DNA of 61,862 nt from Candidatus Shapirobacteria bacterium (GTDB lineage: Bacteria > Patescibacteriota > Microgenomatia > UM-FILTER-40-11), in contig JAGVBK010000003.1 in assembly GCA_020059745.1 (NCBI GenBank), positions 134,492-196,353 of the forward strand. The letters are read 5' to 3'. Numbering within the stretch: position 1 is the first letter of the stretch; each line of letters opens with the position of its first letter. Below are positions 41,970 to 46,244 of the stretch, piece by piece. The notes below the pieces were generated by a model, which saw only the letters and a program-made list of their open reading frames with translations, made no database searches and had not been told where the DNA came from. A program made the translations under genes and the position numbers.

Positions 41970-43004
41970 ATGACTGCACTTTATTTAGGATTGGTAATTT
42001 TTTCTTTTTTGATAACCAGTATTTTGGTGGTTCCTTTTATAAACCTCCTATACCGGATGAAGTTTTTGCGAAAAATCCAGCAAACCAAAGACGCGGAAGG
42101 GAATCGGACCAAAATCTTTGACAGGTTTCATAACATTAAAGCAGGCACTCCGGTTGGCGGAGGCTTTCTAATCATTGGAGTGACCTTCTTTTTATACCTT
42201 ACTTTGTTTCCTCTTCTTTCTTTTCTGGGGGTCTATATCACAACGGCCTATAAGATAAGTGACGAGCTCAACATTCTTTTTTTTACGTTTATCTCTTTTG
42301 GCTTTCTTGGCCTTTACGACGACATAAAAAAGTTTTTCGGTTTTGAAAAGACGGGTTTTTTTGGCTTAAGAATGCGGCATAAATTCATTATTCAGTGGAT
42401 TTTGGCCTTAATTGTAAGCCTGCTTATGTATTTTAATTTGGGAATAGACATTATCAACTTTCCTTTTTTAGGGATTTTAAAGCTTGGGCCCTTTTTTGTT
42501 CCTTTTGCCGCTTTTGTGATCGTCAGCTTTGCCAATGCTTTTAACATTACCGACGGCTTAGACGGCTTGGCATCGGGTTTGCTTTTGATTTTTCTATTTG
42601 CCTTCTGGCTTCTTTCGAGCACTGTATTGGATACACCACTTTCTGTATTTATTGCTATTTGGATAGGAAGCCTTACTGCTTTTTTGTATTTTAATGTTTT
42701 TCCAGCAAGAATATTTTTAGGCGATGTCGGTGCTCTTTCGTTTGGAGCAACTATGGCAGTGGTCGGCCTTCTGATTGGGAAAACGGTGGCTTTGGTGATT
42801 ATTGGCGGGCTTTTTCTTTTTGAAGTAAGTTCAAGCTTGATCCAAATTCTTTCGAAAAAAATCTTAAAAAGAAAAGCTTTTGCCGTTGCCCCTCTTCACC
42901 TTTGGCTTCAGAATAAAGGTTGGGAAGAGCCGAAAATTGTTATGAGGGCCTGGCTGGCAGGGATTATGCTTGCCGTTTTGGGGCTTTGGTTAGCTTACAT
43001 GTAA
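41970..43004 (+). CDS. mraY: Phospho-N-acetylmuramoyl-pentapeptide transferase MraY
   Basis: YDDIKKF, NAFNITDGLDGLASG and VFPARIFLGDVGALSFG. Confidence 0.95.
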   Translation: MTALYLGLVIFSFLITSILVVPFINLLYRMKFLRKIQQTKDAEGNRTKIFDRFHNIKAGTPVGGGFLIIGVTFFLYLTLFPLLSFLGVYITTAYKISDELNILFFTFISFGFLGLYDDIKKFFGFEKTGFFGLRMRHKFIIQWILALIVSLLMYFNLGIDIINFPFLGILKLGPFFVPFAAFVIVSFANAFNITDGLDGLASGLLLIFLFAFWLLSSTVLDTPLSVFIAIWIGSLTAFLYFNVFPARIFLGDVGALSFGATMAVVGLLIGKTVALVIIGGLFLFEVSSSLIQILSKKILKRKAFAVAPLHLWLQNKGWEEPKIVMRAWLAGIMLAVLGLWLAYM

Positions 43005-43732
43005 TGGAAAAAGAAAATAATAACAAAGAAACTTCAGAAGCGCTGATAAAAACCCTGGAAAGTTACTCCAAACTTTCTTTGGGCGGAAAAACAGTGAGGG
43101 CTCCGTACTGGATGAACAAACTCAAACTTGGTATTTTTGGGCCTTTCGGCGGCAAAGGCAGGCCGGAGGATCTCATAAGCTCAGTTAAAACTGAGGCGGA
43201 AAAAAAGGGGATTAAGCTTGAAAAACTGTCGGAAGAAGAGATTCTTTCTTTTATGAAAAGAAAAAAAATTGGGGTTGACTGTTCAGGCTTTGTCTTTTGG
43301 ATGCTTGATTCCCTTGACCGGGAAAGAGGCGGCAACGGAATCGCCGATGATATTCCCGGCAGCAAGGGCAAGTTTTTGTCTTCCCGGGCAAATGCACAAA
43401 TGTTGACCTCAAAAGAGGTTGTGGTTCCGGTAGAAAAGGTCAAAGACATAAAGCCAGGAGACGTGATCAGGCTTCGTGGAGGCCAACATCTCGCCGTTGT
43501 TGTTTCTGTAACCAAAAATGGAGGAAAGGTGATAGAGGTTGAATATGCGCACTCCTCTTTTTTAAGCAAGGAAAAAGGAGTACATCTCCAAAGAATTGAG
43601 GTTACTGATGAAGACAAGGGAATCGGAGAACAGATTTGGCTGGAACAGACGGACAAAGGAGAAAACTACAAAGAAGCTTATTTTATGCCTGAAAAAGGTG
43701 ATGGTGTTAAAAGGCTTAAAATTTGGTCTTAA
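43004..43732 (+). CDS. Cytoplasmic NlpC/P60-family cysteine peptidase/amidase
   Basis: The ATG at 43004 overlaps the mraY TAA (TAATG). KKIGVDCSGFVFWML (catalytic Cys), GDVIRLRGGQHLAVVVSV (His) and EYAHSS (third residue). No signal peptide. Confidence 0.75.
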   Translation: MEKENNNKETSEALIKTLESYSKLSLGGKTVRAPYWMNKLKLGIFGPFGGKGRPEDLISSVKTEAEKKGIKLEKLSEEEILSFMKRKKIGVDCSGFVFWMLDSLDRERGGNGIADDIPGSKGKFLSSRANAQMLTSKEVVVPVEKVKDIKPGDVIRLRGGQHLAVVVSVTKNGGKVIEVEYAHSSFLSKEKGVHLQRIEVTDEDKGIGEQIWLEQTDKGENYKEAYFMPEKGDGVKRLKIWS

Positions 43733-43982: not shown

Positions 43983-44906
43983 GTGATAAAAAGCAAGCTC
44001 AGGATAGAATTGCCCGAAGATAAATCCCAAAAAGGTATTTGGAGATTTGCTGCCTTCTTAAACCCGGTGCGCCAGGACTTCCGTTTAAGCTTGGAAGAAG
44101 GGGATACTAAGGCGGAAGAAATTAACGGCCTTATTCTTAAACGCGAGGACCAAAACCCTACGGGTTCTGCCAAGGACAGGGGAATGGCATACCTTGTTAG
44201 TAAAGCCTACGAAGCCGGGCACAAGAATTTAGTCCTTTCTTCATCCGGGAATGCCGCCATTTCCGCTTTAAGCTACTGCCGTTTAGCCGGAATTAGGCTT
44301 TTTTTGTTCATTTCTCCCAATACTGAGGCAGGGAAAAAAGAGATGATTGAAAAAATGGGAGGGGAAGTGACAGTTTCAAAAAAGCCAATCAGCGACTCTC
44401 TTAAATTTGCAAAAAGAAACAATTATTTTAACCTTAGGCCTTCAGTTAACCAATTTGGGCCTGAAGGTTTTCAAACAATTGCTTTTGAACTGGCAAAAAA
44501 GGGATATTTTGAAGATATTTTCATTCCTGTTTCAAGCGGAGTCACCTTAACCGGTGTGGCGAGGGGTTTTTTAAAGCTTGGTTTTTCTCCCAGAATTCAT
44601 GCTTGTCAATCTTCTTTTCTCCACCCGATTGCCGGGAAATTAACCAAAAACTTTAAAGAGGAGGATCAAACCCTGGCTAAGTCTTTAGTTGCTAAAACTA
44701 CCTCTCTTAAAGATGAGGTTATAAGATTGGTTAAAGAATCGGGGGGAACCGGCTGGGTTATTACTAACCAGGAAATGCTTGAGGCGGAAGAGTTTCTTAA
44801 GGAAAAAGGCGTTGAAACTTCCTACGAGGGGTGCCTCTCTGTTGCCGCAGCAAAAAAAGCAGGATGTCCTGGAGCGGTGTGTTTACTCACCGGCAGAAAG
44901 TATTAA
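43983..44906 (+). CDS. Threonine-synthase-like fold-type II PLP-dependent enzyme (short, 307 aa)
   Basis: REDQNPTGSAKDRGMAYLV (PLP-lysine motif NPTGSFKDRGM of short ThrC), SSSGNAAISALSYCRLAG, PSVNQFGPEGFQTIAFEL. GTG start with no clear SD. Confidence 0.75.
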   Translation: MIKSKLRIELPEDKSQKGIWRFAAFLNPVRQDFRLSLEEGDTKAEEINGLILKREDQNPTGSAKDRGMAYLVSKAYEAGHKNLVLSSSGNAAISALSYCRLAGIRLFLFISPNTEAGKKEMIEKMGGEVTVSKKPISDSLKFAKRNNYFNLRPSVNQFGPEGFQTIAFELAKKGYFEDIFIPVSSGVTLTGVARGFLKLGFSPRIHACQSSFLHPIAGKLTKNFKEEDQTLAKSLVAKTTSLKDEVIRLVKESGGTGWVITNQEMLEAEEFLKEKGVETSYEGCLSVAAAKKAGCPGAVCLLTGRKY

Positions 44907-46244
44907 ATGAAAAAGGAAATTGCCAAGATAAAAGAACCGGTTTTTTATATTACTAACGATGTTTCAAGGGGAATTGGTTTGGAAAAAATTCTCCCCAACT
45001 ACCACATTATTTGCTTGGACGAGCACCCCTTGGTTGATTATCTTATAAAAGAAGGAGTTTCCGTTTTTTGTCTTGAAAGAGAGCTGGGCAAAAAAAACGA
45101 GATATTAAGAAACGCAGGGACAATTTTAAGCCACTCTTTAGTTTTGGACTTCATAAAAGAAAAAAGCGAAGGCCAAAAGCCAAACATTCTCTTTTTTAAA
45201 CCGCAGAAAAAAATTGAGCTGATTGCCAAAAAATATCATTTTAACCTTATCGGCAACAGCGCTGATCTTAGTCGTTTTTTTGAGGACAAAATTAATTTTT
45301 TAAAAATTTGCCAGGAAAATGACCTTAAAGTATCTTCCGGAGAAATCATCCGTCTTGGCAAGGCAAGCTACACGGATTTGCAAAGACGTTTTGGGGAAAA
45401 ACCGGTAATACAGTTTGGACGCGGTTGGGCGGGGAATTCAACCTTTTTTGTGGAAAGCGAAGAAGAACTTGAAAATTTAAAAAAAGAAAACGGCAATATT
45501 GAAGTAAGGGCAGGCCGATTTATAAACGGGATTACCGTTCTTAATAATGCTGTGATTTATGGGGACGGCTTTTTTATAAGCCCTCCGGCTGTTCAGGTAA
45601 AAGCCGAACAAATTTTAACCTCAACTCAGGGCGGAACTGGCGGCCGTCAGTGGCCGGCGCAAATTTCTTTAAAACAAAAAGAAGAAATAGAAAAAATAAC
45701 GGCTAAAGTGGCCGGCATAATGAAGAAAAAAGGCTATAAAGGGCTTTTTGGCCTGGATTATATTATTGAAGAAGAAACAGGAGAAGTCTTTTTATCGGAA
45801 GACAATGCCAGGATTACTGCTTCAATTCCTTTTTATACAAAACTCGAGCTTTCTGAGGGGAGCTTTCCCTTGCTTGGCTTTCACCTTCTTGCTTTTTTAA
45901 AGCCCGGGGAGAGGATTGATTACCAGGGCCCGGAAGTCAGCGGAGGAGAAATTGTCGCCAGAAATAACCGGAAAAAAAGCATGGTTGTTCAAAACGAGGT
46001 GAAAAATGGAATTTATTCAAAAGACCTTAGCTTTTTAAGAGAATCATACTTCCTTGATTCAACTAACAAAGAAGAATTTTGGCTTGAAACTGCGGCGCAA
46101 GGAAGAGTGGTTAACCCTGAAATTGAGATTATTAAGCTTAATACCAAGGACGAGGTTTGTGATCGAAAAGGAAGGCTTAAAAGCGAATACTCCCAAATAA
46201 TCTTTTTGCTTAAAGAAAAACTTGGTTTAAAATGCATAAGCTAA
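44907..46244 (+). CDS. ATP-grasp superfamily ligase (445 aa)
   Basis: EDKINFLKICQENDLKV, KPVIQFGRGWAGNSTFFVESEEEL and YKGLFGLDYIIEEETGEVFLSEDNARI fit the ATP-grasp pattern. It starts 1 nt after the PLP gene stop and lacks the canonical Ddl motifs. Confidence 0.7.
   Translation: MKKEIAKIKEPVFYITNDVSRGIGLEKILPNYHIICLDEHPLVDYLIKEGVSVFCLERELGKKNEILRNAGTILSHSLVLDFIKEKSEGQKPNILFFKPQKKIELIAKKYHFNLIGNSADLSRFFEDKINFLKICQENDLKVSSGEIIRLGKASYTDLQRRFGEKPVIQFGRGWAGNSTFFVESEEELENLKKENGNIEVRAGRFINGITVLNNAVIYGDGFFISPPAVQVKAEQILTSTQGGTGGRQWPAQISLKQKEEIEKITAKVAGIMKKKGYKGLFGLDYIIEEETGEVFLSEDNARITASIPFYTKLELSEGSFPLLGFHLLAFLKPGERIDYQGPEVSGGEIVARNNRKKSMVVQNEVKNGIYSKDLSFLRESYFLDSTNKEEFWLETAAQGRVVNPEIEIIKLNTKDEVCDRKGRLKSEYSQIIFLLKEKLGLKCIS

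Follow-up and report, generated by a model that had tools for sequence, protein, structure and literature searches.

The interval between mraY and ftsW in the division and cell wall (dcw) cluster of Candidatus Shapirobacteria bacterium was analysed within a 61,862-nucleotide stretch of contig JAGVBK010000003.1 (assembly GCA_020059745.1, positions 134,492 to 196,353 of the forward strand; hereafter, the window), in which an earlier note, made from the DNA sequence alone, had placed four genes where murD usually lies. The open reading frame (ORF) listing confirmed all four genes at the positions reported in that note. The interval is bordered upstream by mraY (41970..43004, + strand; PF00953) and downstream by ftsW (46232..47332, +; PF01098, E = 1e-100), and between them are found a gene for a 242-aa divergent NlpC/P60-type Cys-His-His peptidase/amidase, here termed geneA (43004..43732, +), a gene on the opposite strand for a 60-aa LysW-like protein resembling an amino-acid carrier (43733..43915, −; PF21344), a gene for a 307-aa ThrC-like, fold-type-II pyridoxal phosphate (PLP) enzyme (43983..44906, +; PF00291), and a gene for a 445-aa predicted ATP-grasp carboxylate-amine ligase of the PRK06524 family (44907..46244, +; NCBIfam PRK06524). 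The ATG of geneA overlaps the stop codon of mraY by 1 nt, geneA and the LysW-like gene are convergent with a spacing of zero, and the ATP-grasp gene follows the PLP gene without a gap and shares 13 nt with ftsW. A Shine-Dalgarno motif, AGGAGG, can be read 8 nt upstream of the ATG of the LysW-like gene (43924..43929, −), and a candidate sigma70-like promoter, detected by consensus scan only (TTGTCA-18-TATAAT, 11/12 match; 43909..43938, +), lies in the divergent gap preceding the PLP gene. Since the four genes have many homologues and a conserved synteny, described below, they are real genes and not chance ORFs.

The order of the surrounding cluster in the window is MraZ, RsmH, FtsI, MurE, an ATE/Bpt-like protein, a MurC/Mpl-like ligase, MurB, MurA, MurF, MraY, the four genes, FtsW and MurG; on the 3′ side of MurG, five genes (four without a wall function and one unassigned) precede those for FtsA and FtsZ. 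Profile searches found no gene for murD, ddl, alr or murI in the whole 62-kb window, in line with the earlier observation that murD, ddl and alr are missing from the cluster, and a MurD-type ligase is encoded neither in the mraY–ftsW slot nor elsewhere in the window.

The 60-aa product of the minus-strand gene matches the Pfam family Zn_ribbon_LysW (PF21344) with a score of 41.6 bits, above the gathering cutoff of 27, and contains Cys7, Cys10, Cys36 and Cys39 in a CxxC...CxxC arrangement. A phmmer search of PDB sequences gave significant matches only to LysW chains (5k2m_E, 3vpb_E and 3wwl_A; E = 9.5e-6 to 1.5e-4), which come from Thermococcus, Sulfolobus and Thermus. These matches indicate that the protein is a true LysW-fold zinc ribbon, as its initial description as LysW-like had it, and the scores against the LysW equivalog models fall short of their cutoffs (TIGR01206, 24.9 versus 53.2 bits; NF041070, 35.4 versus 75). 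The protein is strongly acidic (net charge approximately −11.5) and has the C-terminus ..NLLEEEK-COOH. A terminal Lys following an acidic run was found in 46 of the 47 distinct carriers encoded at related loci, the tails being ..EEEK (26), ..DEGK (15), ..VEEK (two), and ..LEEK, ..DESK and ..EDEK (one each); the single exception ends in ..EEKG, and LysW ends instead in ..EDWGE. In an exhaustive phmmer search of 1.84 billion representative proteins, this K-tail class, which includes ..LFEEEEK, separated from canonical LysW with ..EDWGE. One cluster of the ..LFEEEEK type is labelled Anaerolineae, K-tailed relatives also occur in metagenome loci, and the [acidic]K-COOH tail is common to copies from the candidate phyla radiation (CPR, or Patescibacteria) and from outside it. 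One related locus encodes a tandem LysW-like protein of 103 aa (L092:8001-8312) with two zinc ribbons, of which only the second carries the tail, ..IEEEK; its gene adjoins a PLP gene, with ftsW and murG nearby. The longer PLP homologues (L005, L020, L029 and L032) were searched for a naturally fused zinc ribbon, and none was found.

The product of geneA has a hydrophilic N-terminus without a signal peptide and contains the motif DCSG...H...H, both as previously described. C93 of the DCSG motif, H162 and H183 are invariant in 22 orthologues from the loci and in 32 homologues, as are PY and GKG motifs near the N-terminus. In Pfam, the protein remains below threshold (PF00877, 17.2 versus 23 bits; CHAP, 21.1 versus 26), and a weak PF00877 match was obtained for 15 of the 22 orthologues. 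Its counterparts in the module of other genomes do pass PF00877 (L097 and L100 at 60–69 bits, and precomputed matches in L087 and L090), and an hhalign comparison of the geneA profile with these canonical NlpC/P60 proteins gave a probability of 96% and E = 4e-9. The AlphaFold2 (AF2) model, with a mean predicted local distance difference test (pLDDT) score of 94.1, had no significant Foldseek match in the PDB, the best (E = 0.3–1.4) being papain-like proteins, namely IdeS, ZUFSP, TDE0362 and the CHAP domain of PlyPy, and the geneA profile searched against PDB sequences gave only a marginal match to the LytE/Spr motif. The protein is thus described here as a predicted cytoplasmic, divergent NlpC/P60-type Cys-His-His protein.

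The 307-aa protein belongs to the PALP family (PF00291, E = 4e-47) and carries the motif NPTGSAKDRG with the catalytic Lys. Its nearest NCBIfam models are archaeal-type short threonine synthases, all scoring far below their cutoffs (best equivalog, 125 bits versus 421; TIGR00260, 59 versus 167), and its best PDB match is the ThrC structure 2zsj (1e-19), with CysM structures (3dwg) also among the matches. The substrate-phosphate site of Thermus thermophilus ThrC (N154, S155 and R160) and the GNxGN loop that binds the PLP phosphate were examined by alignment, in which N154 is replaced by Pro, R160 by Gly, and the GNAGN loop by SSGVT. Because the phosphate-binding residues of ThrC are lost, the loop is changed and the equivalog cutoffs are missed, the protein is unlikely, on sequence grounds, to be a threonine synthase; the description of it as a threonine-synthase-like PLP enzyme therefore holds for the fold and not for the phosphate-binding residues. 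Across 48 members of the PLP family, an SSGN loop and the Arg of an LRPS motif are invariant; in fold-type-II serine racemase, the Ser of the SSGN motif is the second base.

The 445-aa protein has no Pfam match and is most similar to the NCBIfam model PRK06524, labelled “biotin carboxylase” (6e-28). Its AF2 model (pLDDT 92.5) resembles biotin carboxylase, PurK, PurT and PurD most closely in Foldseek (E approximately 1e-18, template modelling (TM) score approximately 0.62; for biotin carboxylase 3ouz, E = 3e-18 and TM 0.62), and E298-x-N300-x-R302, K98 and K128 are invariant in the family. From sequence and model, the protein is an ATP-grasp protein (a predicted carboxylate-amine ligase) of the PRK06524 “biotin-carboxylase-like” family. 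An ordinary Ddl was considered, this being an identity that would have undercut the original proposal, and was rejected: no bacterial Ddl was matched, the fold neighbours are biotin-carboxylase-like, and a genuine Ddl (PF01820 and PF07478) shares the cluster with the module in close relatives (L001, L003, L007 and others). A LysX/RimK-type loader was likewise rejected, since the nearest family is PRK06524 and the best structural neighbours are not LysX or RimK. A weak match (4e-5) to an archaeal pseudomurein ATP-grasp model was also obtained. The same ATP-grasp family occurs on a Rhizobium leguminosarum plasmid (L094; NZ_CP007048.1, 51895-69115), where the protein, annotated “biotin carboxylase” and matching the family hidden Markov model (HMM) with E = 3e-61, has as its neighbours a PLP protein of 895 aa annotated “beta-eliminating lyase-related”, a C45 peptidase, an amidase and an ABC transporter for peptides, while a LysW-like ORF is absent from this stretch. 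The arrangement points to a recurring triad of putative ATP-grasp, PLP and Cys-peptidase proteins outside cell-wall synthesis. A further, large group of low-GC homologues (GC content 0.26–0.39; L111-L171, for example L132, L124 and L120, and also L012 and L039, the last in an Aenigmatarchaeota metagenome-assembled genome) is approximately 27% identical to the high-GC query L090. The members of this group have no module partners within 8–10 kb and nearly all lack a peptidoglycan gene in that range; they probably form a paralogous subfamily with another role.

Conservation was assessed in 78 loci obtained from neighbourhood look-ups and from a scan of GTDB species representatives via the ATP-grasp protein, and family HMMs were built from these loci. 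More than 150 homologues were found for the ATP-grasp protein, more than 400 for the PLP enzyme and 130 for geneA, and all of the ATP-grasp homologues that bear an organism name are from Patescibacteria. At least one partner gene is present in 62 of the 78 loci, the PLP, LysW-like and geneA genes are all present in 38, and other peptidoglycan genes in 58. The gene order varies: MraY-geneA-LysW(−)-PLP-ATP-grasp-FtsW in Shapirobacteria/Woesebacteria-type loci, LysW(−)-PLP-ATP-grasp-geneA-MraY in the Dojkabacteria type, and ATP-grasp-geneA-MraY-ATE-like-MurC-LysW(−)-PLP in the Parcubacteria/Magasanikbacteria type. In each of these CPR arrangements, the same few kilobases hold the partner genes, and the gene for the LysW-like protein keeps its place immediately upstream of the PLP gene, on the other strand. 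Insertions occur within the module in L001 and L002, where a cytidine/dCMP deaminase gene lies between geneA and the LysW-like gene, and in L003, where a methyltransferase gene is found.

Copies outside the CPR lie on contigs of 67–74% GC. In one order, found at 67% GC, the genes for NagZ, a LysW-like protein with the tail FEEEEK, NlpC/P60, a MurD-type ligase, the ThrC-like PLP enzyme and the PRK06524-type ATP-grasp protein are co-directional with 4-nt overlaps; in another, the order is ATP-grasp, MurD, LysW (opposite strand), PLP, NlpC/P60 and a GNAT protein. The MurD-type ligases of these high-GC loci score 202–241 bits against TIGR01087 (cutoff 212), and identities to the window proteins are 32–35% for the PLP enzyme, 28% for the ATP-grasp protein and 39–42% for the carrier. 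Judged by these matches, the module occurs across Patescibacteria and in some high-GC genomes, the taxonomy of the latter being represented by the one homologue labelled Anaerolineae. The synteny check thus upheld the view that the four genes are a conserved functional unit in a peptidoglycan context, the gene set being retained in other CPR genomes while its order changes. A search of the literature found no description of a LysW-like protein in CPR bacteria or in a dcw cluster, nor of this module, which agrees with the earlier note on the novelty of such a carrier in that position.

The relation of the module to murD is visible in the related loci, where the two are linked in five different arrangements. 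In L097 and L100, the order is MraY-(D-aminoacylase homologue)-NlpC/P60-MurD-LysW(−)-PLP-ATP-grasp-FtsW-MurG; in Gottesmanbacteria-like genomes, geneA-MurD-LysW-PLP-ATP-grasp lies away from the dcw cluster, with a PAP2 gene on one side and prfB/ftsEX on the other; in Parcubacteria, LysW-PLP is accompanied by a convergent MurD; and MurD is embedded in both high-GC orders. The order in the window equals that of L097 and L100 minus murD, with the stop codon of geneA abutting that of the LysW-like gene where murD would be expected. The ancestral order was therefore MraY-NlpC/P60-MurD-LysW-PLP-ATP-grasp-FtsW, the module grew around murD in its classical slot, and the lineage of the window lost murD from the slot or moved it. 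The designation “murD slot” is accordingly half correct: it fits the place around which the module was built, but murD itself is gone from it in this lineage. Because a MurD-type ligase lies in or next to the module in most other lineages, the module is best regarded as associated with murD and not as a general substitute for it; a general replacement was rejected on the finding of such a ligase inside or beside the module in many CPR and non-CPR lineages. This result, with the bona fide Ddl in the clusters of close relatives, speaks against the suggestion that the four genes substitute for murD or ddl. An apparent 701-aa MurD-PLP fusion (L030:4464-6569) was dismissed as an artefact: the ORF crosses a scaffold gap, a run of N translated as X that stands in for the last part of murD, for the LysW-like gene and for the first part of the PLP gene. 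In the lineage that keeps murD, a D-aminoacylase/N-acyl-D-glutamate deacylase homologue (PDB 1m7j, 1e-72; 3gip, 1e-65) is encoded between mraY and the module (L097:842-2419 and L100:36-1202), and a small hydrophobic ORF (72–128 aa) is found on the minus strand between the PLP and LysW-like genes (L097:6225-6554, L100:4307-4693 and, likewise, L005:2289-2507); in the murD-keeping lineage, this ORF would be co-transcribed ahead of the carrier gene.

Several known systems resemble parts of the module. The LysW/ArgW systems of Thermus, Sulfolobus and Thermococcus, and of Streptomyces (DADH), have the same zinc-ribbon fold, a similarly high acidity and a flexible acidic C-terminal tail, and they combine an ATP-grasp ligase with a hydrolase, which fits a logic of loading, modification and release; LysW carries Glu in archaeal arginine synthesis. 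In these systems, however, the tail is ..EDWGE and not ..EEEK, ..DEGK or ..FEEEEK, the loader is of the RimK/LysX type and not PRK06524/biotin-carboxylase-like, and the context is lysine or arginine synthesis and not murD and the dcw cluster. In the module, moreover, the modifying enzyme is ThrC-like and PLP-dependent and the hydrolase is NlpC/P60-type, and no LysX/ArgX, LysZ, LysY, LysJ or LysK was found among the neighbours in the window or the related loci. Since the module tail ends in Lys, the attachment chemistry cannot be that of LysW, and since the tail, the loader family and the downstream enzymes all differ, the module is not a member of the LysW/ArgW pathway family, with which it shares the carrier fold alone. 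The idea that the carrier is loaded on a C-terminal Glu by an enzyme of the LysX/ArgX type is thus not upheld, given the near-invariant terminal Lys and a PRK06524-type ligase.

CysO/CysM/Mec+ of Mycobacterium tuberculosis is another system made up of a small carrier, a PALP enzyme and a hydrolase, in which the carrier C-terminus enters a fold-type-II (PALP) enzyme and which has an ATP-dependent loader (MoeZ) and a dedicated hydrolase; it differs in that the carrier is a ubiquitin-like protein with a thiocarboxylate and not a zinc ribbon ending in Lys, the loader is an adenylyltransferase, the hydrolase is a JAMM metalloprotease and the product is cysteine. Aslfm/Racfm of Enterococcus faecium similarly pairs an ATP-grasp enzyme that acylates the epsilon-amine of Lys with an enzyme forming a D-amino acid in peptidoglycan synthesis, but its acceptor is UDP-MurNAc-pentapeptide and not a protein, its racemase is PLP-independent, it has neither carrier nor peptidase, and the module ATP-grasp protein gave no NCBIfam or structural match to the Aslfm family. 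Tubulin tyrosination offers an analogy only: the acidic ..EE-X end has an encoded last residue that can be removed by a papain-like Cys peptidase (vasohibin) and added again by an ATP-grasp enzyme (TTL), but the system is eukaryotic and regulatory and has no PLP enzyme. MurD2/MurL (Xanthomonas, Micromonospora) likewise consists of accessory genes beside a murD-type ligase and is an ATP-consuming, unidirectional alternative route to the D-Glu of position 2 (PMC8788868); it has no carrier, PLP enzyme, ATP-grasp protein or peptidase and is unrelated to the module in sequence. Set against these systems, the module would represent a previously undescribed form of amino-acid metabolism on a carrier protein, sited within the making of peptidoglycan.

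The C-terminal tail hardly varies even between phyla, and for this reason the most economical reading is a pathway, encoded by the four genes, that works through a carrier protein and serves the synthesis of peptidoglycan precursors; it was one of the two options raised initially, and we consider it more likely than not. Starting from the observed identities and folds of the parts, the tail, the conservation and the linkage to murD, we infer a cargo, an attachment point and a series of chemical steps, in which a cycle of loading, modification and release on the carrier would supply D-Glu for MurD; this more specific scheme is offered tentatively, as a reasonable possibility somewhat short of an even chance. 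Ligases of the PRK06524 type activate a small carboxylate and pass it to an amine, which constrains the model. The ATP-grasp enzyme would activate a free amino acid at a carboxylate, in the likeliest case L-Glu at its gamma-carboxylate, and link it as an amide to the epsilon-amine of the terminal Lys of the carrier; this polarity would be the inverse of that of LysX/LysW and would leave the alpha-amine of the cargo free. The PLP enzyme, which needs such a free alpha-amine, could then form an aldimine with it and epimerise the cargo from L to D, and the NlpC/P60 enzyme, of a family whose hallmark is cleavage of gamma-D-glutamyl amides, would release only the D-form, either as free D-Glu or after MurD has coupled this residue with UDP-MurNAc-L-Ala. 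The net result would be an ATP-driven, one-way supply of the residue at position 2 of the peptidoglycan peptide; tethering, racemisation and stereospecific hydrolysis have a parallel in the N-succinyl-amino-acid racemase pathway, in which they give one-way conversion. Of the schemes that draw on all of the parts, namely the Lys tail, the ligase, the PLP enzyme, the hydrolase and the link to murD, this cycle of inverted polarity is the simplest.

The retention in the PLP enzyme of the catalytic Lys and of the invariant SSGN loop, together with the loss of the ThrC phosphate site, favours the D-Glu cycle, and the D-aminoacylase homologue beside the module may be a weak hint of D-amino-acid metabolism. 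In a core-gene table for Parcubacteria published in 2015, murA, murE, murF and murJ are listed and no racemase, murC or murD, gaps that fit divergent or unconventional steps. A number of points weigh on the other side: racemisation does not obviously require tethering; an isopeptide between gamma-D-Glu and epsilon-Lys is not the canonical NlpC/P60 bond, which involves an alpha-amine; the closest relatives of the PLP enzyme are threonine synthases, with beta/gamma chemistry, and not racemases; the cluster in the window has no murD beside the module; the D-aminoacylase neighbour is found in two related loci only; and the same ATP-grasp family operates without a LysW-like protein on Rhizobium plasmids. 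A bolder form of the D-Glu cycle, which we regard as somewhat unlikely, would have the LysW-fold protein hold Glu on its terminal Lys, the ThrC-derived PLP enzyme invert it to D-Glu and the NlpC/P60 enzyme free it, constituting a third, ATP-driven route to D-Glu; in lineages whose cluster murD has left, as in the window, L-Ala and UDP-MurNAc might be joined to the residue on the carrier, so that MurD is bypassed.

Other readings of the same parts have to be set against the D-Glu cycle. The terminal Lys resembles a genetically pre-loaded “LysW-Lys” and might itself be the substrate: starting with Ser, O-phospho-Ser or a derivative of homoserine, the PLP enzyme would generate an intermediate of the aminoacrylate or vinylglycine type, attack by the epsilon-amine of the Lys, in the manner of SbnA or CysM-CysO chemistry, would give a diamino acid resembling diaminopimelate (DAP), such as lysinoalanine, the NlpC/P60 enzyme would clip it off for position 3 via MurE, and the ATP-grasp enzyme would re-ligate Lys onto ..EEE, in a cycle resembling that of TTL and vasohibin. 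Relatives in the ThrC family perform beta- and gamma-replacement, SbnA and CysM models or structures are among the matches, the invariant Arg of LRPS could bind the phosphate or carboxylate of a leaving group, and most pathways of amino-acid biosynthesis are reported to be missing from CPR bacteria. This route is nevertheless unlikely: wherever a Mur ligase stays beside the module it is MurD and not MurE, the phosphate-binding residues of ThrC are lost, and we know of no lysinoalanine-type residue in any peptidoglycan. The MurE of the cluster, which has EDPR in place of the DNPR of DAP-adding enzymes, keeps the Arg of that motif, as do its orthologues, and scores better against DAP-type than against Lys-type MurE models; because the MurE of Thermotoga maritima reportedly has DDPR and yet adds Lys, the motif was judged weak evidence for a DAP-like residue. 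A different proposal, an updated version of the second option of the earlier note, starts from the approximately 25 loci with the gene order of the window (L001-L011 and L106-L163), which have most of the other mur genes (murA, murB, murC, murF, mraY and murG, and murE too where the fetched stretch reaches it) but never murD, and from the stop codons of geneA and the LysW-like gene, which meet exactly at the position of murD in relatives. Here the module would have replaced MurD, Ddl or both in this lineage, either by ligation onto a UDP-MurNAc-peptide in the manner of Aslfm or by construction of stem residues 1 and 2 on the carrier; in the latter variant, it is conceivable that Glu is tethered to the Lys, L-Ala is added by the ATE/Bpt-like transferase (enzymes of this kind accept an N-terminal Asp or Glu), UDP-MurNAc is added by the MurC/Mpl-like ligase, and the NlpC/P60 enzyme releases the product. 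The ATE-like and MurC/Mpl-like genes are adjacent wherever both are found, and the MurC protein scores nearly equally against Mpl and MurC models. Such a replacement is improbable in our estimate, since the complete module and MurD are found together in genomes of the Gottesmanbacteria-like type, of Parcubacteria, of other CPR lineages and from outside the CPR, so that the module must have a function of its own, close relatives have Ddl in the cluster, and, gene relocation being common, murD may lie elsewhere on a 196-kb contig of which 62 kb are in view.

Salvage or recycling of peptides from the peptidoglycan of the cell or of a host would assign the NlpC/P60 enzyme a cut between the D-Glu and the diamino acid of L-Ala-gamma-D-Glu-diamino acid, as made by YkfC, with the other enzymes reworking the pieces and the LysW-like protein serving as an adaptor. 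A NagZ-type GH3 gene (NF003740, 254 bits versus a cutoff of 207) is the first of the operon in one high-GC lineage, the D-aminoacylase homologue adjoins the module in one CPR lineage, the ATP-grasp relative on the Rhizobium plasmid has the PLP lyase-like protein, C45 peptidase, amidase and peptide transporter noted above as neighbours, and CPR bacteria rely on scavenging. Both NagZ and the deacylase are confined to one lineage each, however, the module has no conserved partner of the AmpD, LdcA or transporter kind, and neither the invariant Lys tail nor the need for an ATP-grasp enzyme is explained, which makes salvage a poor prospect. Finally, the zinc ribbon might act non-covalently, as a small accessory or regulatory subunit of, say, the PLP enzyme or MurD, with its acidic, Lys-ended tail acting as a docking or substrate-mimic motif similar to gamma-D-Glu-L-Lys. 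In CPR bacteria, the carrier gene lies immediately upstream of the PLP gene in divergent orientation, with a strand and a strong ribosome-binding site to itself; its product, very acidic beside the uniformly basic enzymes of the cluster, ends in ..E-K-COOH, which looks like the Glu-Lys portion of a stem peptide. The contrast in charge carries little weight, because unrelated Mur enzymes share the basic isoelectric point, and the basic character of the partners was for this reason discarded as a sign of LysW-style electrostatic docking. Covalent carriage is the known function of the LysW fold family, and a near-invariant last residue with an ever-present cognate ligase and hydrolase is the signature of chemistry at the tail, so that a purely non-covalent role is very improbable.

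Peptidoglycan precursor synthesis is among the best-charted of bacterial pathways. To our knowledge, LysW-type carriers are restricted to lysine and arginine synthesis and a few natural-product pathways, and none of the three types of partner enzyme in the module has been seen with LysW. A Lys-ended LysW-fold protein is here found to be wired to murD across a large share of the CPR and in unrelated high-GC bacteria. If D-Glu or some other residue of the wall is indeed what the carrier pathway supplies, a gap in the annotation of CPR wall synthesis would be filled, a new carrier chemistry would be added, in which the cargo is held by its carboxylate and its free amine is open to PLP chemistry, and the module would present a lineage-specific target.

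Several further features of the window were observed. The ATE-like gene in the MurE–MurC interval (36313-37098, +; 261 aa) encodes a protein with a weak match to arginyl/leucyl-tRNA-protein transferases (ATE_C, 7.6e-6; NCBIfam arginyltransferase, 7e-10, below cutoff); it is present in 38 of the 78 loci, directly upstream of the gene for the MurC/Mpl-like ligase wherever both are found, and might act as a FemX-like bridge enzyme or belong to the unconventional pathway of the module. MurE (35084-36316, +; 410 aa) and MurF (40737-41951, +; 404 aa) are missing the usual N-terminal UDP-binding domain, their profile matches beginning at approximately positions 89 and 63, respectively. MurJ, the lipid II flippase, is encoded in two overlapping ORFs (5868-6359 and 6356-7168, +) that cover profile positions 2-133 and 136-404, reflecting either a frameshift or sequencing error or a genuine two-part gene. 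The region 1-29400 (+) is a long co-directional glycosylation cluster encoding six PMT_2-type GT-C proteins, an AftD-like GT-C protein of 992 aa, approximately 10 GT4/GT2 enzymes, a Wzy-like protein, a sugar transferase, a mannose-1-phosphate guanylyltransferase-like protein and a DUF4012 protein; a gene for a “23S rRNA intervening sequence protein” (9850-10248) is located inside it. The five genes that break the dcw cluster between murG and ftsA (48398-50142, −, and 50411-52726, +) encode a methyltransferase (−), a 349-aa multi-pass membrane protein (−), a DUF2130 protein, a cytidine deaminase and a 243-aa unassigned ORF. A second gene of the FtsW/RodA/SpoVE family (58472-59545, +) lies directly 3′ of ileS and is followed by rplU, rpmA and parB, as assigned with Pfam.

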